Virus record (IMG/VR): IMGVR_UViG_3300010376_000866 | Span: 1 to 27,400 of that record | Source of the DNA: a virus | Lineage: Duplodnaviria > Caudoviricetes | Direction: 5' to 3' (one strand) | DNA length: 27,400 nucleotides | Shown here: in pieces, positions 1-23,098 of the stretch | How positions within the stretch are numbered: position 1 is the first letter of the stretch | Layout of the letters: every line of letters starts with the position of its first letter | Notes under the pieces: model-generated | The model's database searches: none | What the model saw: the letters and a program-made list of their open reading frames with translations, nothing else | What the model was told of the DNA's origin: nothing | Translations under genes and position numbers: made by a program

Positions 1-578
1 CGCAGGAAGCCACTGCGGAGGTTCTCGGCGTTCATGAACCAGTTGAGTTCCTCCGCGTGAGCAGCCATCCAGTTCTCGAACTTGTCACGCTTGGTAGCCT
101 CGCGCTTGAGTTCGAGCTTCTCCTGCGCCACGCGGTACCTGGCGACCTCAGCCTCGAACAACTCCCGGTGGTCCAGCATGTACTGGCGCGTCCAGTGGTC
201 GCCGTGGTTGATGCCTCCGCAACCGCATGAGCAGAATCGCCCACGCGCCGCACGGCACTGGCTGTCACAGTCGAGCGTCGTGTCAACTGCGATCAGCTTC
301 TCTCCCAGGATTTCATGTTCCTGGTCTGGTCCGCCGATGAAGCAGAGGACACGGCTGTGCTTCGGGGCCAGGTGCGGGTACAGGCCCAGCTTGCTCTCGC
401 GTACTGGGACGTTGTGAACGTCGCATACCCCGAGATAGATCGTGGTCTGAGTGGCGTCCGTACTCGCATGGGCTGACCGTCGCACCTGCCTGTCGCCAAG
501 GTGCAGCGTCTCTGAGTCGGCCGTGTAGCTTGAACCATACATGCCTTTGGGTGTCATGGTCCGATAGGTGCTGCTCAT
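1..578 (-). CDS. Hypothetical protein with Cys/His metal-binding motif (partial, runs off window)
   Basis: Not in ORF track; hand-translated from ATG 578 after GGGAGAGGAGCCCAAG: MSSTYRTMTPKG...CDSQCRAARGRFCSCGCGGINHG...; open to window edge. Confidence 0.85.
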   Translation of the reverse strand, partial: MSSTYRTMTPKGMYGSSYTADSETLHLGDRQVRRSAHASTDATQTTIYLGVCDVHNVPVRESKLGLYPHLAPKHSRVLCFIGGPDQEHEILGEKLIAVDTTLDCDSQCRAARGRFCSCGCGGINHGDHWTRQYMLDHRELFEAEVARYRVAQEKLELKREATKRDKFENWMAAHAEELNWFMNAENLRSGFL

Positions 579-666
579 CTTGGGCTCCTCTCCCTAGGCG
601 TAAGCAGACCCCGCAACCTACCCTACCCGCGCGGGGCCGGGGCAGGGTAGGCTCCGGGCATGCTCA
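579..666 (-). promoter_or_regulatory. Intercistronic RNA module E1 (long hairpin plus SD hairpin)
   Basis: Minus strand AGCCTACCCTGCCC pairs with GGGTAGGGTAGGTT (2 G-U); flanks TGAGCATGCCCGG/GCGGGGTCTGCTTA. Confidence 0.75.
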
Positions 667-852
667 TCCGTAGTTGATCTTCTGATTGTAAGCGGACCAG
701 CCGTTGGGTCGGCCCTGGCCGGTACGCCTCTCGCGTTCCCGCCAATAGCGCTTGCTTTCTGCTGTGTTCCAGGCCTGGCAGAGCGGGCACCGACACTTCC
801 AGTATCGGTACCCGCTCCTGGTGCCGTGCCTGATATTAGCGGTTGGGGTCAT
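664..852 (-). CDS. Small HGT-x-CRC-x2-C zinc-binding phage protein
   Basis: RHGTRSGYRYWKCRCPLC motif; overlaps the stop of the upstream gene. Confidence 0.8.
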   Translation of the reverse strand: MTPTANIRHGTRSGYRYWKCRCPLCQAWNTAESKRYWRERERRTGQGRPNGWSAYNQKINYG

Positions 853-1267
853 TGTAGTACCCTGGCCTTATGGCCAGAATACCATGTATGACGCTCTCGA
901 TGGCCTCTGGGTCCAGCCATGTCTCGAACTTCATGACCACATCAGTGATCTCGTCTGATAGCACAGAGCGGAAGGCAGCGATGACGTGGCCTTTGATGCT
1001 GTGAAATCCGTGTCCGTTCGGGTTGTCATTATCAGCGCCGTACTTCTCCACCTGCTCCAGGACTTCCATGTACACTTCAGGAGGTACCATTGGTGCACCA
1101 GAATCAGTCTTGTAGGCAGCTTTCAGCGCTGCCAGGAAAGCAGACTTGGCCAGCCCGAGGGTCGTGGTATTGGCCCCGCCTGCATCTGCAATCGATGCCA
1201 GATAGAAGTCTCCAGCCTGCTGGGCTAGGTTCTCCTTGGGCGTAAGCCGCTTGTCGGTTAGATCCAT
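836..1267 (-). CDS. Hypothetical protein (143 aa)
   Basis: Start moved to ATG 1267 after GATGGGAAGGAGCCCATC. Confidence 0.8.
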   Translation of the reverse strand: MDLTDKRLTPKENLAQQAGDFYLASIADAGGANTTTLGLAKSAFLAALKAAYKTDSGAPMVPPEVYMEVLEQVEKYGADNDNPNGHGFHSIKGHVIAAFRSVLSDEITDVVMKFETWLDPEAIESVIHGILAIRPGYYNDPNR

Positions 1268-1362
1268 GATGGGCTCCTTCCCATCCCGTGCGCTAGCTTC
1301 TGTAACTAGCACCGGCAGCAGAGGCAGGGATTACCGGCCCTGCCCCGCTGTCTCGCGCTACT
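1268..1362 (-). promoter_or_regulatory. Intercistronic RNA module E2
   Basis: CGAGACAGC-GGGGCAGGG...CCCTGCCTCT-GCTGCCGG hairpin, alternative hairpin GTGCTAG/CTAGCGC, then SD hairpin. Confidence 0.75.
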
Positions 1363-1633
1363 CACATGTGCAGCATGGTTGCGGCACCGTTGGCTCTCCG
1401 TACAGGAGAGCGTCCGGCTCTGGGTCGATCATGGTTGGCTCGATACCTGGCAGGTGACAACCGCACTCACACGGCTCACCAGGCTCATCACGCGGGTCAG
1501 TGATGCACTCCCAGCAACCGCAGCCGGGCTTATGCTCATCATTAGGAGGCCAAAGGATTGAGCGGCATCCTGTTGGCCCCTGGTGCGGATAGGTGCCCAG
1601 GCAGTACGGGCACTGCTCAACCTGGTTAGCCAT
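1358..1633 (-). CDS. Cys-rich hypothetical protein (91 aa)
   Basis: MANQVEQCPYC...CGCWEC...CECGCH...CCTCE; start overlaps the upstream gene end. Confidence 0.7.
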   Translation of the reverse strand: MANQVEQCPYCLGTYPHQGPTGCRSILWPPNDEHKPGCGCWECITDPRDEPGEPCECGCHLPGIEPTMIDPEPDALLYGEPTVPQPCCTCE

Positions 1634-1808
1634 GAAGATCTGGGATGAGGAGGATGAACGGTGACCCATCATTGATCAGCGGATCGCTCTCATCGGTCAC
1701 CTCGATGACGGGCTTGGGACCTTTTGGAGTATCGACATACACCGGCAGGTGATCGCCGTACTCCTCTTCAATTGTCCCCTTGACCTGGGCGGCTGTTAGT
1801 GGTGGCAT
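1626..1808 (-). CDS. Hypothetical protein (60 aa)
   Basis: ATG after ATGGAAGGAGTCCATA. Confidence 0.8.
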   Translation of the reverse strand: MPPLTAAQVKGTIEEEYGDHLPVYVDTPKGPKPVIEVTDESDPLINDGSPFILLIPDLHG

Positions 1809-1890
1809 TATGGACTCCTTCCATCCGGACTCACTGTGAGCCGGCAGCTACCCTCCCGGCCCCTGTGTCGGGAGAGCGCTGTCTCGCTAG
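1809..1890 (-). promoter_or_regulatory. Intercistronic RNA module E3
   Basis: GCGAGACAGC-GCTCTCCCG...CGGGAGGGT-A-GCTGCCGGC; alternative hairpin CCGGCTCAC/GTGAGTCCGG; SD hairpin. Confidence 0.75.
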
Positions 1891-1893
1891 CAG

Positions 1894-2097
1894 CTAGTCT
1901 GCGCAAGCGAAGTGCTTGGGATTGGCGAAGTAGTTGAACGGACAATCTGAGTTGTAAGACGGCTCATAGGTGATTGTCCACTGGTACGAGACGTACCTGG
2001 TGTGATGGAAGTGCGCTGACACCATCATGCTGGTAACCATCACCGCGAAGCAGAGGATGAACCACATCAGCAGCTTGCCGAGCAGGTCCCTGTTCAT
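1894..2097 (-). CDS. Small membrane protein
   Basis: Hydrophobic N-terminus LLGKLLMWFILCFAVMVTSMMV; ATGA overlap with the upstream gene. Confidence 0.7.
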   Translation of the reverse strand: MNRDLLGKLLMWFILCFAVMVTSMMVSAHFHHTRYVSYQWTITYEPSYNSDCPFNYFANPKHFACAD

Positions 2098-2333
2098 AGC
2101 TTCTGATCGAACTCCTGTCCCAGAGTCTGAACGATCAATTCATTCATGCTGGCGTGAGCCGCCTTGGCCGTTCGGTCGGTCTTGCCGGTGATCTGGTTTG
2201 CCAGCTTGATCATGCTGGTACCACGGCTCAGTACCATCCCGGTACGCACCTGCGTCCGCAGGCCCATACGTATGGTAAGCCATCGAGCCGCCTCGATCTT
2301 CTCTGGCGTATCCAGAACGAATCCTTCTGACAT
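2094..2333 (-). CDS. Hypothetical protein (79 aa)
   Basis: ATG 2333 after ATGGGAAAGGAGCCCATA. Confidence 0.8.
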   Translation of the reverse strand: MSEGFVLDTPEKIEAARWLTIRMGLRTQVRTGMVLSRGTSMIKLANQITGKTDRTAKAAHASMNELIVQTLGQEFDQKL

Positions 2334-2421
2334 TATGGGCTCCTTTCCCATGGGCTGCTTCCTAAGCAGTCCCCGCTACCCTCCCCCGCCGGAATCCAGG
2401 GAAGGGCACCGGGCGTGCTCA
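2334..2421 (-). promoter_or_regulatory. Intercistronic RNA module E4
   Basis: TGAGCACGCCCGG-TGCCCTTCCC...GGGGGAGGGTA-GCGGGGACTGCTTA (flanks nearly identical to E1); alternative hairpin CTGCTT/AAGCAG. Confidence 0.75.
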
Positions 2422-2439
2422 GAACACGCGGTCTGGCTA

Positions 2440-2580
2440 CTAGACGAATGCGATAAAGTTGAACCCCTTCCATATGCCATAGTAGCACCAGAGGAGGATC
2501 ATGTTGACTAGGTTGCTGACCGTAACGGCCATCCGAACCATGAAGGTTATGGTACAACCTAGGCAACCGTGGCTGTTCAC
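2440..2580 (-). CDS. Small hydrophobic protein (46 aa)
   Basis: Below track cutoff; GTGA overlap; MNSHGCLGCTITFMVRMAVTVSNLVNMILLWCYYGIWKGFNFIAFV. Confidence 0.55.
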   Translation of the reverse strand: MNSHGCLGCTITFMVRMAVTVSNLVNMILLWCYYGIWKGFNFIAFV

Positions 2581-3587
2581 TCCACGCCCTTGCGACCGGA
2601 GTCACCGGCCGCTCTGTGGACGTGCAGGTTCAGCTCATTGGCCCGATCCACGCCACGCTGGTACGCGGTCATGTTCGTCTCGGGCCGCCGGTAGATACGA
2701 CCAGGAGGGTGCTGACGGCAGTGACCCGACGGGTTCGACTGGCATCGTGGGCAGGGTGGAGGTGGAGTCCAGGTTGACGTCCTGAACAAGTCCTCATTCT
2801 GCTCCCGGAAGAATGCCTCCAGGCTATCCGTCTGGCCATGCAGGACCAGCTCATACCCGACAGGCCGCTCACGCTCTGCCTCGCGCAGACGCTGCTCGAT
2901 GCGGTCGGTGTAACCGTCCGCAGCTGAGCTCCGGTAGGTGGCGGTACCCCCAGCAGCTATCCTGGGAGCATTCTCGCCAAGAGCAGCGGCCGCCCGGTAG
3001 CAGGCACGCTTGAAGCTAGAGCCGACACGGCCCTCAGTGGACTCCTCCAGAACCGTATAGCTCTGAGGGTCCCTGCGCTCCCAGATTGCCTTCTGCCCGG
3101 ACTTCTCACCATACCGGCGACTCCAGCCTGCTTCCTGCGCAATCTGAAGCCAGTTGTAACCGGCCTCATGCAGGTTGTAGCTGTTCGCGTCCACGGACAG
3201 GCTCGGGTCCCACTTGGGGGCCAGGACCTTGACCATGTGGAGCATGGTCTCTGTGTACAGCAACTCAAAGAAGCGCAGATCTGACTCAAAGCCATAGATC
3301 TTGCTCTTCGGGTAGCTGTGGCGGACCTTGCACCGGCAGTGCTTCGCCAGGTGATCGATCACCCAGGACACGAACATGACGTCTGGACGTTCGATCAGGA
3401 TGACCTCAGGCTTGCTCTTCTCAGCCTCGGGCCGGGACTCGTTGAGCAGAGCCTGGTCTATGGCGTACTTGAGCATCAGAGCATCAGCTGCACGCTGAGC
3501 CTGGGCCTCCTCCTCCGGGGTACACCCGTTCTCCACTGTCTTGGAGACCAGGCCTCGCACCTTCCGCAGGACATCCGACAGTTCCAT
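2577..3587 (-). CDS. DUF2786-domain protein
   Basis: N-terminal KVRGLVSK...TPEEEAQAQRAADALMLKYAID is the DUF2786 pattern; later IYGFESD and AYQRG..RA motifs; SAS-type SD. Confidence 0.8.
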   Translation of the reverse strand: MELSDVLRKVRGLVSKTVENGCTPEEEAQAQRAADALMLKYAIDQALLNESRPEAEKSKPEVILIERPDVMFVSWVIDHLAKHCRCKVRHSYPKSKIYGFESDLRFFELLYTETMLHMVKVLAPKWDPSLSVDANSYNLHEAGYNWLQIAQEAGWSRRYGEKSGQKAIWERRDPQSYTVLEESTEGRVGSSFKRACYRAAAALGENAPRIAAGGTATYRSSAADGYTDRIEQRLREAERERPVGYELVLHGQTDSLEAFFREQNEDLFRTSTWTPPPPCPRCQSNPSGHCRQHPPGRIYRRPETNMTAYQRGVDRANELNLHVHRAAGDSGRKGVE

Positions 3588-3700
3588 TGTGGGCTCCTTT
3601 CCCGCCTGGGACTGCTTGTAACCGGGGCAGATACCCCGGCCGCTACCCTACCCGCTCCCGCTCGCGCGGACGAGGGTAGGGCACGGTCTGAGGGACCTAC
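3588..3700 (-). promoter_or_regulatory. Intercistronic RNA module E5
   Basis: TGCCCTACCC...GGGTAGGGTA hairpin; alternative hairpin GGCCGGGG-TATCTG-CCCCGGTT; GGGAAAGGAGCCC. Confidence 0.75.
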
Positions 3701-3996
3701 TTAACGCACCCGTCGCGGCCGTGATGGTTCCTGGCCTCGGTCGAGCACTTCGGGCACGGCTGGAACCGTGTCTCATACCGTTCCGTCAGCCGGAAGCGGC
3801 GAATCCACTTGACCCTGTTGGCCCAGGTGAATGCCGGCTGCCCGACCATCTTGCGAGCGGTCTTCATGGTGTTATTGCGGACATCGTCCAGGACCAGGCC
3901 ACAGAAGGTCTGCTTGCCAAAGTCATGGATGGCGTGGCTGTAGGTAGCGTTGGGGGTTGCCACCCAACAGCCTGGCCAGATGTCAATCTGATCCAT
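3697..3996 (-). CDS. Putative zinc-binding protein (H..CG...CPKC, 99 aa)
   Basis: ATG 3996 after TGGGAAAGGAGTCCCA; SHAI..TFCG and PCPKC motifs. Confidence 0.75.
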   Translation of the reverse strand: MDQIDIWPGCWVATPNATYSHAIHDFGKQTFCGLVLDDVRNNTMKTARKMVGQPAFTWANRVKWIRRFRLTERYETRFQPCPKCSTEARNHHGRDGCVK

Positions 3997-4096
3997 TGGG
4001 ACTCCTTTCCCAGGGCTGAGATGCCCCGGCAACCTGCCTGCCCTCTTCCCAGGTTTCTACATCCCTGGAGGGGAAGGTAGGCTGCCGGCTGTCTCA
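3997..4096 (-). promoter_or_regulatory. Intercistronic RNA module E6
   Basis: CCGGCAGCCTACCT.../...AGGCAGGTTGCCGG long hairpin closed by TGAGA/TCTCA; alternative hairpin CCGGGGC/GCCCTGG. Confidence 0.75.
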
Positions 4097-4399
4097 GAAA
4101 CAGCCATCTCCGGTATTGGGCTTGCCGCCAATTTCCAGCAGCGTACCCTCCGGAATGACCAACTCGCCGAAGTGAATCAACTCGGCTAGCTGCATGAAGT
4201 CCTCACGCTCTTCAAGTACTTCATTGATCAGGAGTATGTCCTCGCCATCCTCCTGGGTGTCGCCGAAGATCCATCCTAGGCGTACACACCGGACGCTCAC
4301 GAATGAGGCTACCAGGTAGTTCGCCAAGTCTGGGTCCGGCTGGTAGATGATAACCGGCTCCGGATTATCGCCGACGATCCAACTGAGGTCAGTCGTCAT
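4094..4399 (-). CDS. Acidic hypothetical protein (~101 aa; start 4399 or 4420)
   Basis: C-terminal part of track ORF 4094..4540; start overlaps the end of the leader ORF at 4389-4439. Confidence 0.7.
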   Translation of the reverse strand: MTTDLSWIVGDNPEPVIIYQPDPDLANYLVASFVSVRCVRLGWIFGDTQEDGEDILLINEVLEEREDFMQLAELIHFGELVIPEGTLLEIGGKPNTGDGCF

Positions 4400-4439
4400 C
4401 GCAGAAATCCGATCGGTCATCTGTAAACTCACAACGCAT
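4389..4439 (-). CDS. 16-aa leader ORF MRCEFTDDRSDFCDDD
   Basis: The ATG directly after the SAS-type SD CTGGGAAGGAGCCTAGG opens this frame, not the long downstream frame. Confidence 0.45.
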   Translation of the reverse strand: MRCEFTDDRSDFCDDD

Positions 4440-4607
4440 CCTAGGCTCCTTCCCAGGGTCTTGCTTCCCGGCCCGAACGCCGGCAGCAGGAACCGGGGGT
4501 TGCCGCCCCGGCCGTCGCGACTCGGCACACCCCACAACAACGACTCTTCCCAGAGTCCCCTATGCGGCTATGCCCCCAGTCCCTACTGTCTAGATTCGGA
4601 TGGGTTT

Positions 4608-4736
4608 TCATCGATGTAGCCATACCATCAGGTGGTACAGGCGGAAGGTCGGGCCGGGTCCGATGACGTCGGCCGGTGAGCCGACGTACAAGGACACGTG
4701 CTGGACCAGGTACACCAGTACCAGGATCAGTATCAC
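4608..4736 (-). CDS. Small membrane protein (42 aa)
   Basis: GTGA overlap; MILILVLVYLVQHVSLYVGSPADVIGPGPTFRLYHLMVWLHR. Confidence 0.5.
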   Translation of the reverse strand: MILILVLVYLVQHVSLYVGSPADVIGPGPTFRLYHLMVWLHR

Positions 4737-4870
4737 TTGCCCACCACGATCGGGTGGATGTAGCGGTCCACGGTGAGGACAGCGCCGAAGCAGACACCCT
4801 TGACATCCTGGAGGATGACCACGGGGCCGTTGGTGCCGACGCCCAGCTCAGGGGACATGATCCTTGCCAT
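4733..4870 (-). CDS. Hypothetical protein (45 aa)
   Basis: MARIMSPELG... after AGGGAAAGGAGCCCAAA. Confidence 0.7.
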   Translation of the reverse strand: MARIMSPELGVGTNGPVVILQDVKGVCFGAVLTVDRYIHPIVVGK

Positions 4871-5062
4871 TTTGGGCTCCTTTCCCTTCTGGCTCTTTTC
4901 TTGGCTGGGGTACCCAGGCCAGCAGTGGTTGCGGGGACTTACGCATTTCGCCCACGGCAGCCCCTTGCGCTGCCTCGTAACTAATCGCCACTGCTGGGGT
5001 CTGAGTACCCCTCGCTGCCCTCCCCCTCGCGCGGGAGGGGAAGGGCACCGGGCTAGCACTCA
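4871..5062 (-). promoter_or_regulatory. Intercistronic RNA module E7 (extended, multibranch)
   Basis: TGAGTGCT..TGCCCTTCCCCT/AGGGGGAGGGCA..GGTACTCA hairpin overlaps a second structure GGGGTACTCAG..CCAGCAGTGG/CCACTGCTGG..CTGGGTACCCC. Confidence 0.75.
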
Positions 5063-5263
5063 GGCTACATGTAGAACCAGGTTGGGCCTAGCACACCGGG
5101 CGCAGAGGCAGCCGCCGCTCCCTCGCGCCATCTCGTACCGGAAGCGGCGATCCACCTCATGGGTGAGCTTGCTGGCCCGCTGGACGCTAATACCCAGCTC
5201 AGCAGCTAGCTCTCGCTCAATCCGGCTGCGGACAGATTCCGTGACTACACGGTTCGCGGACAT
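5060..5263 (-). CDS. Hypothetical protein (67 aa) with C-terminal CxCxxC
   Basis: ATG after TGGAAGGAGCCCAT. Confidence 0.75.
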   Translation of the reverse strand: MSANRVVTESVRSRIERELAAELGISVQRASKLTHEVDRRFRYEMARGSGGCLCARCARPNLVLHVA

Positions 5264-5296
5264 ATGGGCTCCTTCCAGGTCCGCTTGTTTCTTGCG

Positions 5297-5357
5297 CGCG
5301 CGGGGCCGGGGTCGAACCGGCCGCCCCTCCCGGAAGGGGAGGGGCCGCCTGCCGCGC
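5297..5357 (-). ncRNA. Minimal tRNA-like element (no true D-arm or anticodon)
   Basis: GCGCGG-CAGGCG-[GCCCCTCCC/GGGAGGGGC]-GGCCGG-TTCGACC-CCGGCC-CCGCGC: 6+6 bp acceptor/T helix with a TTCGA loop. Confidence 0.65.
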
Positions 5358-5364
5358 TATCTCC

Positions 5365-5814
5365 CTAGGCCGCGTTGACCCCGGAGATCTTTCCGGCCCA
5401 GTCGCTCCGGGCCGGAACAGGAATGGCACCTTCCGGCCAAACCCCACCGACCGGAAGGTAGTGGAGGATCTGGGCGGCCCATGCCAGCGCCGCGTCGCGG
5501 CCGGCAAGGTCGGTACCACGGACCTTGAGGGCGAATCCCTCAAAGGTCGAATCGGGCATGGCCTTGAGGGCGTCGCCCGCCGCTACGATCATCGCGCGAG
5601 CCAAGGAGTTCTTGGTCTCGTTGACGTTGACCTTTGGCTCCTTCGGAGCGGCCGGGACGCGGCCGGTTCCCTTGGCGCCGCTCGCCTTGATAACGGCGGC
5701 CATAGGGTCCGTAGCCGGAGCGGCCGGGGCCGGGGCGGGCGTACGGGTACCGGTGCCACGCCGGTTGCTTTTCGGGGCGGCCGGGGTAGCGGTTGAACGC
5801 GTGCGAGTAGCCAT
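5365..5814 (-). CDS. First gene of leftward operon; basic Ala/Pro/Thr-rich N-terminus (149 aa)
   Basis: ATG 5814 after TGGTAAGGAGACCAAA; codons avoid CAG/CTG over most of its length. Confidence 0.8.
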   Translation of the reverse strand: MATRTRSTATPAAPKSNRRGTGTRTPAPAPAAPATDPMAAVIKASGAKGTGRVPAAPKEPKVNVNETKNSLARAMIVAAGDALKAMPDSTFEGFALKVRGTDLAGRDAALAWAAQILHYLPVGGVWPEGAIPVPARSDWAGKISGVNAA

Positions 5815-5865
5815 TTTGGTCTCCTTACCAATAGCTACCAAAGGTCCCGGCGGTTACCGGGTCCG

Positions 5866-5986
5866 TGGACGTCCTAGGGGTCGAACCTAGTCCGAAAGGA
5901 GCGGAAAGGCCAAAACGCCCGGCCCGCCCCGGAACCGCTATTTGATCCGGGTAGGAGTCGGGACGCGCGCTTATTCCAAAACGTCC
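5866..5986 (-). ncRNA. tRNA-like element with enlarged interior
   Basis: 5' GGACGTT pairs with 3' GACGTCC(A); T-arm CTAGG-TTCGACC-CCTAG adjoins it directly (7+5 bp); ~90-nt interior with hairpins. Confidence 0.65.
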
Positions 5987-5989
5987 GAT

Positions 5990-6525
5990 TTGAGCTATTT
6001 ACCGAACCCCGCGACGGGTCCGCCCCCCGATACCTCCGGCGCGCCCGGAGCCGCCCGTAGGGGCCGCTTCCGGCTCGTACCCGTCGCTCCCTTCCCTCGC
6101 CCCGGGTCCGGAGATCCCGGCGGCCTAGGCCGCCCGGACGTCTCGCCCGTTTACGCCGATAAGGCCCCTTCGGGGCGGCCCCTCGTATCGCGTATTTTTG
6201 GCTAGGGAGATCGGCTCTAGATCGTAACCGGACCCCTACGGACCCCCTCCCCGCGACGGTCGCCCGGTAGCTCCTTCCCGACGCGGACCCGGCCGCCCTA
6301 GGACGGTCGGGGCCGGTTACGACGGCGAGAGGTTCGCCCCTCGCGTAGGGCCGGGAGATCGGTAACGGACGGCCCGGAAGAGGGGGCCGCGCGCTCCCCC
6401 GAGGGGGAGCGGTACCAAGATCGAGTTAGGTCGAATCGGGGCCGGCGGGGCGGCCCCGCTCGGAGCGGGACCCGGCCGGCGCTCCCTCCGGGCGGTCCGG
6501 AGGGGGACCCCTTCGGGGTCTACCC
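5990..6525. other. GC-rich, hairpin-dense non-coding leader
   Basis: No ATG on either strand; about 10 stems, e.g. GACCCC-GAA-GGGGTC, CGCTCCCC/GGGGAGCG, TCGTAACCGG/CCGGTTACGA, GGCGGCCTAGGCCGCC. Confidence 0.7.
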
Positions 6526-6528
6526 CCG

Positions 6529-6557
6529 ACCCTAATCACGGGTTTTGTACGGGCAAA
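6529..6557 (-). promoter_or_regulatory. Putative SigA/HrdB-type leftward promoter
   Basis: (T)TTGCCC-16/17 nt-TAGGGT directly upstream of the first hairpin of the leader. Confidence 0.5.
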
Positions 6558-7011
6558 ATTTTCCGGAGTTAGCCGAGGTAGATTGTTTAGCGGCGCTAAT
6601 TACTACGCACGGTAGAGTCCTACACTCTAGTAGGAATAGCCTCCGAAGTGCGGAAACGTCTTTAGTTAATTTGCCTACCTAATAAGCCGCGCTAAGCAAA
6701 TTTCGTACGGGTTTAGGTCCTAGCGAGTGTTATCGGAGATAAGTCCGATTGGAAGAGTCCGATTGCTACCCTAGATTCGTCTTCGCCCGGTTAAGTGTTT
6801 AAATTCGGACTTATCCCGATTTGTTATCCATAAGCCTCTGACCTGTGGAAATGGATAGCTCTGGGCAGGGTAGGTCCTAGTACACGAGAGGGGGTACGTC
6901 CATGCAGTGTGGCTCCTAGCCACAGCGAGAGGGTATCCGTGGCTGACCTGTGGCGACGCTCCGGGCCGCTCGGGGGCCGGGGTCGATGGGGTACAAAAGG
7001 TATTTTGCGTA

Positions 7012-7404
7012 CTAGAATACCTAGAATACGAGATAACCGGTATTCTAGCCAGAATACGGGTAATACCCGTAAGGGGGACACTGGTACTGTAATCGTAGTT
7101 TGTAGGTCGAAATAGGACGTAATTCTTGTAGAGGGAGAATGTATACAATACCAGTCTAAACGATCTTGAAATTCTAGTATGTATGCCATTCGGACCTGTG
7201 GGTATATACGATATGCAACCACCAGAATACGGGTTTTCTGGGTCCCTAAGGGGTACTCGTATTCTAGTGGGTGAATACCAGTGCAAACTGGTACTCTGGT
7301 AGCCTAGTATGGTATACCCACCTACACTGGTATCATATAAGTCTTAGGGGACTAGTAGAACCAAAGCTAGAATACCAGTGTAAAAGGGGTAACTGGGATT
7401 CTGG
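7012..7404. repeat. Array of CYAGARTAC(CAGT) repeats, mostly as inverted pairs
   Basis: AGAATAC at 7014, 7023, 7051, 7224, 7369; GTATTCT at 7040, 7259; variants at 7273, 7287, 7325, 7393. Confidence 0.75.
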
Positions 7405-8079
7405 TAGTGTAAAACGGCCGAAACAACGTGCAGGGGATAAATTGGACTTTGGGCCGATTGACCCGGACCCCTCGCGAGCGGCCCCTACGGGGCCGGGCCG
7501 GGGCCGGGCCGCGCTGCCCTAGGGCCGGGGCGAGGGGCCGCCCGTAGGGCGGGGGAGCGGGAGGGGCCGCCGGGCTAGGGGTGGAGGGGCCGGGGGAGGG
7601 TCAGGCCAGGAGTCGGCGCGCCGACGTTTGGTTAGCTAGGGTAATGGTTTGTAGGACGGATCATTTGAGCGAGGGATAGTTTGAGGTGGAGATCGTATGG
7701 ACTCAAGATCTTTTGGGGAAGAGATCTTATGGTTAACATATCGTTAGCTTGGGGAAAGATCTAACAAAACGATCTTGGTCCCGCAAAATGGTTGGAAGTT
7801 CCGGCGCATCGGCGCGGACTCAAACACAATTTTGCTCATTTTGAACTGCATTTCCTGAAAAGTTGGCCACAAAAACACCAAAACCCAAAAAACTACAACA
7901 CTATTTCACTCAAAATGGGTTTTGCACAGTCAAAACCCAACGGAACCATCATATAACACAGATAAACCCCACCAAAACTAGGATTTACTAGCTAACCAGC
8001 AGCGAAAGGGGGTACGATAGCGGAGCGCCCGGCCGCAGCCCGGAAAAGCGCACCAGACCAAAGCAGAGCAGGAGCGAGC

Positions 8080-8583
8080 ATGGCACGGATGGCACGCATC
8101 CCGAGAACAACTAAACGCAGCATAAGCAAGGAGGCAACCCCATTGGCTCCGGACAGGACGACAGCAGAAGTGAACATGGCCTGGGAACAGTACAAGTCGG
8201 CGACCAATGATGCTCTTCTCGTGTACGAGCAGAATGTCGATGAGGCCCGCATGCAGAGGGATAAAGCCACTGCTGTGGCCAGGGCCGAGTTCAACGAGAA
8301 GATGGATGAGATTGACTCCACATTTGATCTCGCGTTGGCGGCCGCTTGGACACAGCACCGGCAGGCCTCTGATACGGCGCGGACTATTCGCGACCATATC
8401 ACCGACAGCATCCGGCACTCCCTGACCGCTGAAGAGCTTGAACATGCCCAGAGGATGGCGCAAGCTGCACAGCAGGCCAGCTACGCTCAGGATGAGGACT
8501 CTCAGGTCATCATTGCCAATGTAACCGACGCAGGATCTGCAGGCTCCCCGCAGTCTGCTGCGGTGGACCCGCCCACCCCCTAG
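8080..8583 (+). CDS. Coiled-coil hypothetical protein
   Basis: 167-aa ORF, helical and Ala/Glu-rich; GGAG upstream. Confidence 0.75.
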   Translation: MARMARIPRTTKRSISKEATPLAPDRTTAEVNMAWEQYKSATNDALLVYEQNVDEARMQRDKATAVARAEFNEKMDEIDSTFDLALAAAWTQHRQASDTARTIRDHITDSIRHSLTAEELEHAQRMAQAAQQASYAQDEDSQVIIANVTDAGSAGSPQSAAVDPPTP

Positions 8584-8628
8584 GCCGCGACACCTAGGAC
8601 ACGGGTCTACTGACTGCGGGTCGAGGAA

Positions 8629-8736
8629 GGAGGGGTGGTCCAGTGGGGCTGCCGCTAACGCCAAGTCCGAATGCTGGCGAGCCGGACAAGGAACACGCCC
8701 CCGAGTCCGGCGGTGCGGTGCCTGGGCCACCCCTCC
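8629..8736 (+). ncRNA. Candidate structured RNA (multibranch)
   Basis: 15-bp closing stem GGAGGGGTGGTCCAG/CTGGGCCACCCCTCC enclosing CGCCA/TGGCG and GCCGGAC/GTCCGGC hairpins. Confidence 0.5.
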
Positions 8737-11825: not shown

Positions 11826-11936
11826 AGCGCCCCGTATCACCTGGTTCGCGTAACCGAGATTCTGGTCCATAGGAGGTTGGTCCTAGACTCGGCTCCCAGC
11901 TTCGGCTAGGGTACGCGCCGGGAGGTACGGGGCGTT
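11826..11936 (+). promoter_or_regulatory. Structured 5' leader sequestering the SD and start of putative terS
   Basis: 11826-11852 pairs with 11912-11936 (13+5+6 bp); internal C-UUCG-G hairpin. Confidence 0.65.
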
Positions 11937-12435
11937 GTCAACTGCTGCAAGTCTCGACAAGCTCATTGCAAGGTCAGGTCACACTGAGCAACAGCTGCGT
12001 GTGGAACTTGCGCGTGGAGCGAAGTCAGATCGGGACCTTTGCCGGCAGTATGGTATCAACACAACCCATCTCAAGGCGTTCATTGAACTGAACGCCGATG
12101 CCATCGCAGAGATAGGTGCTCATCTCGCGAAGGGTGACCCGATAGGGCTGGCTGGCCTGTGGGTGAGCGCAAAGAACATGCGCATAGCCGAGATGCAGGG
12201 TGACATCGAGGACATCAACCGATCCATAAATTTCTTCCGTGATGAAGATGGTGTCCTGAGCCCGCAGTTCGGCACAGACAAAGAGTATGCGAATCTCATC
12301 CGGACCAAGACTGGCCTCTTGCGATCCGTTGCCGATGAAATTGATGGCACACGCCGCGCTATCCTCTCGCCCGAGGATGAGCGGAAGATGGTGCGCTTTG
12401 TCATCGACGGCGACATCGCAGGCGGTCTTACATGA
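11935..12435 (+). CDS. Putative terminase small subunit
   Basis: N-terminal HTH-like segment (SDRDLCRQYGINTTHL), central helices, C-terminal beta strand VRFVIDG; lies upstream of terL; GGGAGG SD. Confidence 0.6.
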   Translation: MSTAASLDKLIARSGHTEQQLRVELARGAKSDRDLCRQYGINTTHLKAFIELNADAIAEIGAHLAKGDPIGLAGLWVSAKNMRIAEMQGDIEDINRSINFFRDEDGVLSPQFGTDKEYANLIRTKTGLLRSVADEIDGTRRAILSPEDERKMVRFVIDGDIAGGLT

Positions 12436-12917
12436 GGACGCAAGAGGGCTGGTTCTGCGATCTGAGGTTTGAGGGCTGTGGCACGGACGCACTCAGTGCC
12501 TGGCTCTGTGCCGTAGAACAGATTGAGGTTTCAGCCTGTCGGCCTTGTAGAGAACAGTGGCAGGAGCTAGCCCGTAATGAGCCTGCGCTCCGGGTTCGCT
12601 GCCCACGTTGTGCTGACCGGCAAATCCGCGAGGCAAGGCGGAAGCCACAGGACCCAGGACCGCTTACCGGCCTGGTAGCGAATGCCCTTGATGAAGCTAT
12701 GCGAGTTGAGGGCATTCTTGTAGACGCCCGCATCCGTGTGCTACGCCGTCTGGCCAGGGACGCAGCGTGGCTGAATGGATGGGGGTCCAGTTCGGCGGGG
12801 GCAGCTGCACCTGAGGATGCGGGCCAGCGCGGAATCGTGAGTGCGCCCCCTGTCGAGCCGGTCCTGGGCAGAGGTCGGCTGCCTGGGGCCGGTATGGGAG
12901 CCGCGTTATGCCCGTGA
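12432..12917 (+). CDS. Cys-rich hypothetical protein between terS and terL
   Basis: ATGA overlap; CRPC and CPRC motifs. Confidence 0.55.
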   Translation: MRTQEGWFCDLRFEGCGTDALSAWLCAVEQIEVSACRPCREQWQELARNEPALRVRCPRCADRQIREARRKPQDPGPLTGLVANALDEAMRVEGILVDARIRVLRRLARDAAWLNGWGSSSAGAAAPEDAGQRGIVSAPPVEPVLGRGRLPGAGMGAALCP

Positions 12918-14269
12918 TGCTTGAGCACAAATACGGCCCTCGGGGTGCCTGTAGCGTTGTATTCAAAGCACGGGACCCTGAGGTTCTCATTTCTGGACCG
13001 GCCGGCACAGGGAAGTCGAGAGCATGTCTGGAGAAGCTCAACCTGATGTGCCTCAGCAATCCGGGGATGCGGGGCCTGATCGTCCGGAAGACTGCCACAA
13101 GCCTCTCATCGACTGCTCTCGTTACCTGGAAGAAGTTTGTTATAGCGGAACTCCTCCAGGTGGGAGATGTCAGGTACTACGGTGGCAGCGCTTCAGAGCC
13201 TGCGGCTTTTCTGTACCGTAACGGTTCCAGCGTCTCCATCGCGGGCATGGACAAGCCTACCAAGGTCATGTCATCGGAGTATGACGTCATATATGTTCAG
13301 GAAGCTACTGAGCTAACTGAGACTGACTGGGAGTCATTGATATCCCGGCTCCGTAACTGGGTGGTTAGCTTCCAGCAAATCATTGCCGACTGCAACCCTA
13401 GTCATCCGACGCACTGGCTAAAGTTGCGGTGTGATACCGGCAAGACTCGTATGCTGGAGAGCCGACACGAGGACAACCCGGTACTATTTGATGACGATGG
13501 AGAACTAACCGAGAAGGGTTATGACTACATCGGCAAGCTAGACCGGCTGACGGGCGTACGGAGATTGCGCCTGCGGCTGGGCATGTGGGCGAGCGCTGAA
13601 GGCATCATCTATGAGGACTGGAGTGCCTCCCACATCATTACGCAAATCCCGGCTGGTGACGGTGAGGCGCGTGATCCGTTTGGGGTTCCAATGGCCTGGC
13701 CGCGCATTTGGAGCGTTGACTTTGGGTTTGTGAACCCCTTCGTCCTGCAGTGTTGGGCGGAGGATGGAGATGGACGCCTGTATTTGTATCGTGAGCTGTA
13801 CCACACTCACAGAACTGTGGATGTTCACGCGAAGACGATTCTCAATATTGTTGCTCCAGAGCTTCCTGACGGCCGGCGCGTATGGCTTGAGCCCCAGCCA
13901 GTCGCTGTTGTTTGCGACCATGACGCTGAAGGTCGAGTTGTCCTTGAGCGCGAACTTGGGGTGTCCACACAGGCAGCTCACAAGTCTGTACTTGAAGGCA
14001 TCGACTCTGTACAGGCTCGTATGAAGGATGCGGGCGATGGCAAAGCCCGTGTTTATCTGGTAGCTAACTCCCTCGTGGAACTGGATGAGGAACTGAAGGA
14101 ATCTGGCAAGCCTTCTTGTACGGTCGAGGAAATCCCCGGCTATGTCTGGAAGTCAAATGAGAAGGATGAGCCGCTCAAAGCCGATGACCACGGCTGTGAC
14201 GCTATGCGGTATGCCGTTGCCGACCGCGATTTTGGCATCCGCGCTATCTACAGGAGTTTTTCGGCATGA
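12908..14269 (+). CDS. terL: Terminase large subunit (PBSX/SPP1-like)
   Basis: Walker A GPAGTGKS, Walker B VIYVQEATE, DCNP..HWL, nuclease motifs VDFGF and DDHGCDAMRY. Confidence 0.95.
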   Translation: MPVMLEHKYGPRGACSVVFKARDPEVLISGPAGTGKSRACLEKLNLMCLSNPGMRGLIVRKTATSLSSTALVTWKKFVIAELLQVGDVRYYGGSASEPAAFLYRNGSSVSIAGMDKPTKVMSSEYDVIYVQEATELTETDWESLISRLRNWVVSFQQIIADCNPSHPTHWLKLRCDTGKTRMLESRHEDNPVLFDDDGELTEKGYDYIGKLDRLTGVRRLRLRLGMWASAEGIIYEDWSASHIITQIPAGDGEARDPFGVPMAWPRIWSVDFGFVNPFVLQCWAEDGDGRLYLYRELYHTHRTVDVHAKTILNIVAPELPDGRRVWLEPQPVAVVCDHDAEGRVVLERELGVSTQAAHKSVLEGIDSVQARMKDAGDGKARVYLVANSLVELDEELKESGKPSCTVEEIPGYVWKSNEKDEPLKADDHGCDAMRYAVADRDFGIRAIYRSFSA

Positions 14270-16037: not shown

Positions 16038-17387
16038 ATGTCTCGTAATACTCCCTGGCGCACCACCAGGTCGCTGATGGCACTCCACAGGGGAGGGCCG
16101 GGCACTGACTGGTACAGAATCAAGAACCAGGTCAGTGGCGGTCCAACCCAGGTGCACATCTACGATGAGATCGGCTACTTTGGCGTCGGTGCCATGGCGC
16201 TGATCCGCGACCTGGCGGACGTACAGGGACCGATCGACGTCCACATCAACTCGCCAGGTGGCGAGGTGTTTGAGGGGCTGACCATCTACAATGCTCTGAT
16301 GCAGCGTAAGGATGTTACCGTCTACATTGATGGTCTCTGCGCTTCCATCGCTTCTGTCATCGCAATGGCCGGTAATCCAGTGCTCATGGCGCGCCAAGGC
16401 ACGCTGATGATTCACGAGGGGCACGCCATGGCTATTGGCAACGCTCAGGACCTTCGGGACCTGGCGGAGCAGGTTGATCGGCAGTCCAACAACATCGCCA
16501 CCATATACAGTGAGCACACCGGCAAGCCAGTTGCTTTCTGGCGTGATCTGATGAAGGCCGAAACTTGGATGTCGGCTGACGAGGCCATCGGCCACGGCCT
16601 GGTTGACAGGCTGGTTGACTCTGGGGCAGGAAGGGTCCCTGCGGCTGTCAGCGACAGCTGGGACCTGAGTCAGTTTCGGAACTCGACCAAGCTAACCAAT
16701 ACGCGTAATGCGGCGAGCCACCCGTATGTCGGCCATAGCGATCACATGCACGAGCCGATGCGGGGGCTCCACTCACACAACCATGCTGCCTTCGGGCACG
16801 AGGATGGCGATGACGGTATCCACAATCACTCGCACAGCCATGACGGAGATGCCTCTCACGGCCACGGTCATGTTACGCATGTACATGATCACGAGCACGA
16901 AGGGGAGCACATCCATGCTCATGACGCGGGCGAGAATGACTGGGGAGAGCACGGTCACGCGCACACGCACCACGCTGGATTCAATGACCATGACGGTGAT
17001 GAGGGCATGGAGAATAAGAACTCCAGTGCCGTATACAACCGTTCCAACGCTCTGCTTTTGGCTAAGTATCCCGAGGCGCGGTTCTATGCCAAGGACTACA
17101 GCCAGGATGAGCGTGACTCTATGGCCAAGTCGGGCGAGGCTTTGTCTGACGGGTCCTATCCCATCAAGACTTGCACGGACGCGCACAACGCCCGGCAGGC
17201 CTATGGGCGTTCCAACGAGGGTGACCGTAGCAAGGTCGCCTCTCACATCCGTAGTCGTGAGAAGGCATTGGGCGGGTGCGGTCGCGAGCCGTTCCAGTCC
17301 GGCACTGACGACTCCACAGACCTGGTCATCGATGACGCCTTCATGACCAGTTTCCAGAACAGCCTACGGGCACTGAGAGGAGTGTAG
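16038..17387 (+). CDS. ClpP-type prohead protease with His-rich insert and C-terminal extra domain
   Basis: VHINSPGGEVFEG, GLCASIAS (Ser), MIHE (His), ETWMSADEA; His tract 16719-16991. Confidence 0.92.
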   Translation: MSRNTPWRTTRSLMALHRGGPGTDWYRIKNQVSGGPTQVHIYDEIGYFGVGAMALIRDLADVQGPIDVHINSPGGEVFEGLTIYNALMQRKDVTVYIDGLCASIASVIAMAGNPVLMARQGTLMIHEGHAMAIGNAQDLRDLAEQVDRQSNNIATIYSEHTGKPVAFWRDLMKAETWMSADEAIGHGLVDRLVDSGAGRVPAAVSDSWDLSQFRNSTKLTNTRNAASHPYVGHSDHMHEPMRGLHSHNHAAFGHEDGDDGIHNHSHSHDGDASHGHGHVTHVHDHEHEGEHIHAHDAGENDWGEHGHAHTHHAGFNDHDGDEGMENKNSSAVYNRSNALLLAKYPEARFYAKDYSQDERDSMAKSGEALSDGSYPIKTCTDAHNARQAYGRSNEGDRSKVASHIRSREKALGGCGREPFQSGTDDSTDLVIDDAFMTSFQNSLRALRGV

Positions 17388-22390: not shown

Positions 22391-22737
22391 CGAAGGCAAT
22401 CCTGATTGGCATATCGTCTGCTTGCTTTGTGATACTCTTCTGGGTTGGGATGTACTTCCTCTTCAAGGTAACTGGCGGCGAAAATCAGGCCAGTGGGATG
22501 TACGGTTTCACGTCTGGCCCCGGTCCCATGATCCTGACTGCTATCGGGATGGGTTCTATCGTGGGTAGTCTCTGGCACAACCTGAACTGCCATAAGCCTG
22601 GTTGCTGGAACATGGGGAAGCACAAGGTCAACGGGACCCCGTGGTGTAACGTACATCATGAAGAGGCTAGGCACGAGAAGACCCAGGAGCAGCTGCTATC
22701 TGAAATTCTGGAGGTGCTACGTGCCGATAGAGGGTAA
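22387..22737 (+). CDS. Two-TM membrane protein with Cys/His C-terminal motif
   Basis: ATGA overlap; NCHKPGCWNMGKH..WCNVHH. Confidence 0.75.
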   Translation: MTKAILIGISSACFVILFWVGMYFLFKVTGGENQASGMYGFTSGPGPMILTAIGMGSIVGSLWHNLNCHKPGCWNMGKHKVNGTPWCNVHHEEARHEKTQEQLLSEILEVLRADRG

Positions 22738-23098
22738 CAAGACTGGCCATCGCAATATGGCCGTAGTTTGCTGGGTAGCCTCCTGGATTCTGGCTATCGT
22801 CGGGGGCATGCTGTTTGCTGTGTTTGAGAACATTGGATGGGACCGGGGGATCTACTGGGCCCTGACAACTGTTACCACAGTGGGGTACGGCGACATAACT
22901 CCTCACAACTTGATGGGATATGTAATTGCCGACTCGACTATGGTACTGACTATTCCGATCTGGTCTGTAGCCATAGCATTCGCTACCTCGTGGTTTACAT
23001 CCTGGCACATCTGGGATTCTCATGATCAGCAGATTGCTGATCGAAGAAACATGCACGAGCAGACGCAAGCGCACATCTCCTCGGTGGTGAACCCTTGA
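22721..23098 (+). CDS. Two-TM potassium channel (KcsA-like, Ion_trans_2)
   Basis: GGAGG-6nt-GTG; TM1, pore helix IYWALTTVT, filter TVGYGD (22877-22894), TM2. Confidence 0.9.
   Translation: MPIEGNKTGHRNMAVVCWVASWILAIVGGMLFAVFENIGWDRGIYWALTTVTTVGYGDITPHNLMGYVIADSTMVLTIPIWSVAIAFATSWFTSWHIWDSHDQQIADRRNMHEQTQAHISSVVNP

Follow-up and report, generated by a model that had tools for sequence, protein, structure and literature searches.

A strongly selected, recurrent CA/TG-poor zone at the head of a phage early arm, possibly a modification-free first transcription unit

Phages T5 and T7 bring their genomes into the cell in stages, and in kinetoplastids base J, a glucosyl-hydroxymethyluracil, plays a role in stopping transcription. 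Avoidance of restriction-modification (R-M) sites in first-injected DNA is described for plasmid leading regions, for T5 and T7 and for murciaviruses, which reportedly escape a Type I system because its motif, containing CAC/GTG and CTCT, is absent from the first-injected region (PMC12455610). In another set of phage systems, 5mYOX/TET enzymes are combined with glycosyltransferases for post-replicative DNA glycosylation, and DNA is modified in specific contexts, for which the available portions of the reports give GpC, NTC and NTG (PMC8256090; bioRxiv 10.1101/2023.12.21.572611; PMC13229309). Here, we analyse a 27,400-nt stretch of DNA (hereafter, the window) from the 39%-complete IMG/VR virus record IMGVR_UViG_3300010376_000866. 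It contains a zone which, as far as the accessible text describes those systems, resembles R-M avoidance in murciaviruses (PMC12455610) and plasmid leading regions, in that a motif is avoided locally at the head of the early region and the probable first-expressed gene is covered. Literature searches in a library of mostly open-access papers brought up no published phage unit that is free of one dinucleotide.

The zone (5488..6837, unstranded) encompasses a control region and most of the first leftward gene. Counting across the whole window bore out what had been seen by eye. Consecutive CAG/CTG sites at 5485 and 6838 leave a gap of 1,353 nt, compared to 239 and 136 nt for the next-longest gaps among the 1,252 sites in 27.4 kb; the gap in CAT/ATG spans 5812-6829 (next-longest, 310), exactly accommodating the absence claimed for 5815-6828, and the tally of only three CA/TG steps in 6001-6540 (6199, 6416 and 6537) is also exact. 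The sliding-window check that had been proposed puts the CA/TG odds ratio of 6001-6500 at 0.04, compared to a window median of 1.18 (z -8.8), with TA odds of 2.36 and CG of about 1.2 in the same stretch. Base composition as the sole cause is refuted by the trinucleotides of 5488-6837, where CTG is found 0 times versus 50 expected, ATG 6 versus 27 and GTG 11 versus 50. With 30 occurrences versus 27 expected, TTG/CAA is exempt from the purge, in line with the earlier impression that most survivors are CAA/TTG, and CTAG is indeed common, with 9 copies versus 3.2 per 1,350 nt elsewhere in the window. The zone core (5992..6536) has two CA/TG steps in 545 nt, is palindrome-rich, with a GC content of about 70-75%, and includes no credible ORF. 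Beyond the zone, milder CA/TG depletion extends over about 5000-7750, including a shoulder of partial depletion (6838..7790; CA odds 0.66-0.88, TA 1.5-1.7) with a second CAG/CTG gap (7607-7846); the right boundary (7800..7960) consists of an A-tract and a CA-containing segment with TGCACAGTCAA at 7923. Core, shoulder and boundary are likewise unstranded. The shoulder also contains a hairpin with 23-bp arms (7212-7277), and pieces within 7200-7800 fold somewhat better than shuffled sequences (z down to -3.0).

The plus strand of the window encodes the large terminase (12908-14269), portal, Clp protease and capsid proteins, and the position of the plus-strand gene 11935-12435 suggests that it encodes the small terminase; the terminase pair (11935..14269) lies 5-6 kb from the zone. 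An actinobacterium is the probable host, since the nearest cultured terminases are those of Thermobifida phage P1312 (62%) and Streptomyces phage Dagobah (52%). Among the virion genes, we also found a potassium-channel-like gene (22658-23098; Ion_trans_2, E 4e-10), and the Clp-type head protease (16038-17387) has a long His/Asp-rich insertion in its C-terminal half. All genes left of the zone are leftward. This early arm (3..5263, minus strand) is composed of small unknown genes and a DUF2786 gene (2577-3587), and its CA/TG content is normal. The first gene of the leftward arm (5365..5814, minus strand) encodes a 149-aa basic protein rich in Ala, Pro and Lys and is preceded by a Shine-Dalgarno (SD) element (5818..5828, minus strand). 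Related strong SD elements precede the leftward genes at 1272, 2338, 3592, 3998, 4444 and 4875 on the same strand and resemble the 13-bp start-associated motif that the accessible text on cluster EF phages describes (PMC7302621). By eye, TTGGCC and TAGGTT, 18 nt apart (5884..5913, minus strand), form a possible promoter; a consensus promoter scan returned 0 promoter-like sites.

The protein encoded by 5365-5814 has no Pfam, PHROG or Atlas assignment, but 12 distant homologs share the C-terminal motif W-HYLP...WP...P-RS(D/E)W; close viral loci were found neither for it nor for the product of 8080-8583. The purge extends into the codon choice of this gene, as originally proposed: it has 34 CA/TG steps versus 51.8 +/- 5.0 expected and 4 CAG/CTG versus 19.8 (0 of 2,000 simulations as low), whereas all seven other left-arm genes tested are normal. 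Homologs in the three other contigs examined are not CA/TG-poor either. The bias is selected at the DNA level and on both strands, in line with the earlier suggestion of strand symmetry and probable action on double-stranded DNA.

Similar zones recur in related uncultured soil phages, whose packaging modules are of two unrelated kinds. Across 80 terminase-related loci, most of them distant or short of upstream DNA, a strong zone is present only in L048, where the layout is as in the window, with weaker ones in L009 and L004 (the latter contig being G001). The lowest CA odds are 0.00 in G013 and G017, 0.04 in G011 (locus L129), 0.25 in L048 and 0.26 in G020, and there are CA/TG-free runs of 689 and 684 nt in relatives. 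G013, G017 and G020 have a terminase without a match to that of the window and an SPP1-type portal, and the family of the window's first gene has no detectable homology to that of the zone genes in the relatives. The occurrence of the zone is therefore tied neither to a packaging module nor to a single gene family. Nevertheless, the proteins of both families are small, basic and rich in Ala, Pro and Lys. In G011, G013 and G017, the zone corresponds to a promoter region and one small basic gene, with sharp edges on both sides and normal or dense CA/TG DNA directly beyond. These zone genes have 3, 4 and 3 CA/TG steps, respectively, versus 47, 35 and 37 expected, and the encoded proteins alone force 1, 3 and 3, showing that the purge reflects selection at synonymous sites. 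Furthermore, the zone genes of G013 and G017 differ at 25% of positions (75% DNA identity), yet the purge is kept, and where the zone copy has 0-1 CA/TG per 100 nt, its paralogs from the same genomes reach 8.5-13. Upstream of the conserved N-terminal part, all three genes are devoid of ATG, GTG and TTG starts, and each has an in-frame ATC with an SD-like element 8 nt in front of it, suggesting that they probably start at AUC; given that ATG, GTG and TTG all contain TG, this start would be an outcome of the same selection, and it would explain why gene callers miss these real genes. Overall, the zone is real, recurrent and strongly selected.

Very dense CA/TG is also encountered in non-coding DNA. 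The control region of G014 contains such a block (G014:100-860; 57 per 200 nt versus a median of 25), which adjoins CA/TG-free stretches, and G001 has one beside its early arm (28100-28300; 54 versus 26), both with about twice the normal CA/TG. We dropped dense blocks as constant flanks of the zone, because dense flanks within 1.5 kb occur in controls too. The G014 contig begins in CA/TG-free DNA, followed by its extremely dense block, and that of G015 stops before the expected place of the zone, so that the zones of both may be cut off at contig ends. Two further patterns were observed: mild genome-wide CA/TG depletion in G018, G022, G021 and G025-G028, all encoding the glycosyltransferase described below (median odds 0.73-0.85; 0.73 and 0.80 in G018 and G022), and, in a complete relative without this enzyme, a TA-rich patch (G005:40251, equivalent to L021 2700-3400; odds 2.7) with mild CA loss.

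The dinucleotide loss could be a by-product of a structural element (a folded RNA, a hairpin origin or stiff DNA) or the scar of CpA-to-TpA mutation. CA/TG steps are flexible DNA steps, and the zone is rich in TA (2.4) and in short palindromes, all of which would fit this explanation. However, 200-nt pieces across 5800-6999 have folding z-scores of -2.0 to +1.2 and no Rfam match reaches the gathering score, and the purge continues through protein-coding DNA. As to mutation, CG rises alongside TA (1.5 and 1.7, pooled), as expected of selection rather than of C>T decay, and in 10 genome pairs C/T differences are no more frequent before A (0.097) than before G (0.114) or T (0.113). RIP-like CpA hypermutation was accordingly rejected, there being no C>T excess at CpA and no GC loss (core GC 75%), as was a structured non-coding RNA, with no Rfam match and no unusually stable fold. 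Given the codon and paralog controls, we consider a structural or mutational origin largely refuted and very unlikely.

A candidate modifier is found in the replication module of many relatives. G001 encodes a TAGT-like glycosyltransferase as well as a flavin enzyme, HAD, SDR and ThyX; the Pfam TAGT match of the glycosyltransferase P0002 scores 23 bits, under the cut-off of 27.5, and PF20691 is present in many of its homologs. Alignment of 39 of 85 homologs led to 36 viral loci, the 18 longest of which were taken further, and 20 carriers were scanned in all, some minus their last 0.1-2.3 kb. In most carriers, the gene lies between a DUF6011 gene and the helicase gene; in G001 and G006, it is located 1.1 and 0.45 kb past the helicase. 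Its neighbours encode a dCMP deaminase (six loci), a flavin enzyme, HAD, SDR and ThyX, and in G011 (L129:16917-17762) a ParB-like gene lies directly upstream, with no dioxygenase detectable. A 5-methylpyrimidine dioxygenase (Tet_JBP) was found in none of 10 records, six of them from carriers, and C5-methylase and ThyA-type enzymes in none of five records each, so that no source of the sugar acceptor was found in the records checked; the dCMP deaminase in six loci hints at a uracil derivative.

Four of the 14 carriers of at least 37 kb (G011, G013, G017 and G020) have a CA odds minimum of 0.26 or lower, compared to one (G030) of 14 contigs without a glycosyltransferase match, and none of 10 complete relatives without the enzyme has a strong zone (lowest value, 0.40). 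A rank test on the 14 carriers and 14 non-carriers gives a one-sided p of 0.037, for genomes that are not independent, G013 and G017 being close kin. Several of the 10 long carriers without a strong zone are fragments or mildly depleted genome-wide (G018, G022). G012, however, is a real carrier in which the region upstream of the terminase is included and there is no zone (minimum 0.76). Conversely, G030 combines a CA-poor zone (0.26) with the lack of any glycosyltransferase match across 50 kb that span the replication module; a 328-aa gene beside its paralog was considered and showed no detectable relation to the enzyme. The concentration of strong zones in carriers points to the phage's own modification, and that the zone relates to self-modification, for whichever of the two purposes considered below, appears probable.

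Whether the window phage is itself a carrier bears on this argument. Contigs L183 (117-nt overlap, 100%) and L188 (1,921 nt, 100%) extend the window by 6 kb up to an SNF2 helicase, and the glycosyltransferase was not found in the resulting 33 kb. These 33 kb include the interval between the DUF6011 gene and the helicase, where most carriers have it. L183 ends after a secreted-protein gene, about where the enzyme of G001 and G006 lies, and of the positions occupied in carriers only this one, just past the helicase, is outside the DNA covered. Three of the four closest long relatives by capsid protein (71-74%) encode the enzyme, the fourth being a 53% fragment. The window helicase shares 44-48% identity with its counterparts in 17 of the 18 carriers matched versus 31-35% with those of cultured non-carriers, its best match being G030, and the genome-wide TA odds (0.77) fall within the range of all 20 carriers (0.68-1.13), outside that of the 10 complete non-carriers (0.42-0.60), although the TA signature may be only a lineage marker. 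Together, the capsid relatives, helicase identity and TA signature place the window among carriers, against which stands its best helicase match G030, with a zone and no enzyme detected; the window phage may thus encode the glycosyltransferase. A spermidine-synthase-like SAM-binding protein encoded in the extension (L188:3535-4356 / L183; 132 homologs) is an alternative candidate modifier; its gene is common to G006 and G012, whereas the strong-zone genomes are without it.

The original prediction held that the zone is the first-entering genome end, carrying a protective first gene. This stands insofar as the zone, a few kilobases upstream of the terminase genes, heads the early arm and takes in what is probably the first gene to be expressed; for the genome end itself, the indications are mixed. 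TGCA(CA)GTCAA marks the zone boundary in three phages (window 7923-7933, L048 1960 and G002 5910) and not in G001, G011, G012 and G013, and is a candidate packaging or terminus signal. Positions 4800-8700 of the window contain no terminal or long repeat, the available contigs bridge the zone without break, and a Logan contig covering 6965-9426 has a depth of 9.6 versus 6.2-7.5 in its neighbours in one run, which is too weak for a terminal-repeat call. In G011, the 97-nt end repeat falls within the tandem repeat of the zone gene itself. In Dagobah, the terminase relative, a terminal repeat of 1,187 bp directly precedes the terminase genes, which favours a genome end near the 7800 boundary of the window.

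Type IV nucleases cut sugar-modified DNA. The island could thus belong to the same self-modification but be left unmodified so that these nucleases cannot cut the first-entering DNA before a small protein inhibits them. All of the evidence on association with the glycosyltransferase would apply to this purpose, as would the Dagobah repeat; moreover, the distance from the zone to the probable small terminase downstream is 1.6-6 kb in the window, L048, G001 and G011, and in the first three of these the depletion becomes gradually weaker along the early arm. Yet, the zones of G011, G013 and G017 are sharply bounded on both sides, primase genes lie in the roughly 9 kb between zone and terminase in G013 and G020, and cultured cluster EF phages, which share the replication module, are circularly permuted (PMC7302621). 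We regard evasion of Type IV nucleases as unlikely.

The prediction further attributed the depletion to purging of CA/TG-containing host recognition sites (Type I/III R-M or BREX-like) from the first-entering DNA until the first gene product protects the rest; an unknown short-motif defence would act in the same way. The murciavirus precedent and the proximity to packaging genes are in its favour, and it accounts for G030 and does not require the enzyme in the window genome. However, palindromic sites are enriched 2-3 fold rather than purged (CCGG 34 versus 11, GGCC 23 versus 11 and CGCG 17 versus 7), as are most 4-mer palindromes without CA/TG, and it is the whole dinucleotide, not particular motifs, that is removed. 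All four NTG triplets, the start codon included, are gone in G011, G013 and G017, which no set of 5-7 bp motifs demands, and the two sharp edges match one transcription unit. Finally, such a zone occurs in 0 of the 10 complete relatives, seven of which are cultured phages with the same replication module. The zone is not ordinary restriction-site avoidance; purging of generic R-M sites is not supported, and host-site avoidance in its wider form appears about as improbable as the Type IV scenario.

We tentatively favour, at close to an even chance, the interpretation that the phage modifies its own CA/TG sites with a sugar and that the zone is its modification-free first transcription unit. This is the simplest reading of something that acts on both strands at CA/TG and must spare one unit. 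With a two-letter target, a host system would be unable to leave the remaining genome untouched except where entry is staged, whereas a modifier of the phage's own accounts for the shortness of the target, the ranking of contexts and the dense blocks of G014 and G001. The TAGT-like enzyme would attach a bulky sugar at CA/TG, probably to the T of TG, with the preference CTG > ATG > GTG >> TTG in the window phage; a phage T-dioxygenase prefers NTG (PMC13229309). The sugar would hinder host RNA polymerase, so that the CA/TG-free island, as one unmodified unit, would be transcribed first, and its small basic protein would then open the remaining genome to expression. Bacterial RNA polymerase is blocked by bulky groups in the major groove, probably at the initiation step (PMC4838386), but it still transcribes glucosyl-5hmC templates (PMC11550810). 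Against the modification-free unit count the absence of the enzyme from the window's 33 kb, the zone without enzyme in G030 and the enzyme without zone in G012, as well as the 10 of 14 long carriers that have no strong zone, the sub-threshold Pfam score of P0002 and the failure to find an acceptor-making enzyme in the records checked. A more ambitious version, in which an actinophage lineage encodes a positional epigenetic program, with virion DNA sugar-modified at every CA/TG and poorly readable, one exempt unit (with an AUC start where needed), a small basic protein that unlocks the rest and CA/TG-dense blocks as barriers, is possible but doubtful.

If the favoured interpretation is true, it reveals how armoured DNA is paid for by a phage in terms of transcription, and the sequence target of an uncharacterised DNA glycosyltransferase would be predictable from genome sequence alone. 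It would also offer a general screen, in which islands lacking a dinucleotide would reveal the modification context and the gene expressed first in uncultured phages. Under the defence readings, the zone would instead point to a defence with a two-letter target and to two small protein families as candidate inhibitors.

Several known systems share parts of this arrangement. Compared to R-M avoidance in first-injected DNA, the whole dinucleotide is removed over 0.7-1.3 kb with palindromic sites enriched, the edges may coincide with a single transcription unit, and ATC apparently takes the place of the usual start codons. Actinophages with a DnaE/ThyX/oxidoreductase module (mycobacteriophage KandZ/PBI1, Microbacterium phage Krampus, Streptomyces phage Wentworth and Gordonia phage Lambo) have the same replication module and a similar start-associated SD motif, and none of the nine cultured genomes of this kind tested has the glycosyltransferase or a strong zone. 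Like the 5mYOX/TET clusters, as presented in the accessible parts of their reports (PMC8256090; bioRxiv 10.1101/2023.12.21.572611; PMC13229309), which contain no mention of a modification-free island, the carriers have a TAGT-like glycosyltransferase in the replication module, and we count the ParB-like gene before the G011 enzyme as a further likeness; unlike them, the carriers have no TET/JBP dioxygenase or C5-methylase in the records checked, the neighbours being instead dCMP deaminase, the flavin enzyme, HAD, SDR and ThyX. Base J involves a related glycosyltransferase family and a sugar-modified base proposed to gate transcription by its position, whereas here, with a putative base identity, the positioning would be hard-coded by where a dinucleotide is present and where it is missing, in a phage transcribed by bacterial polymerase.
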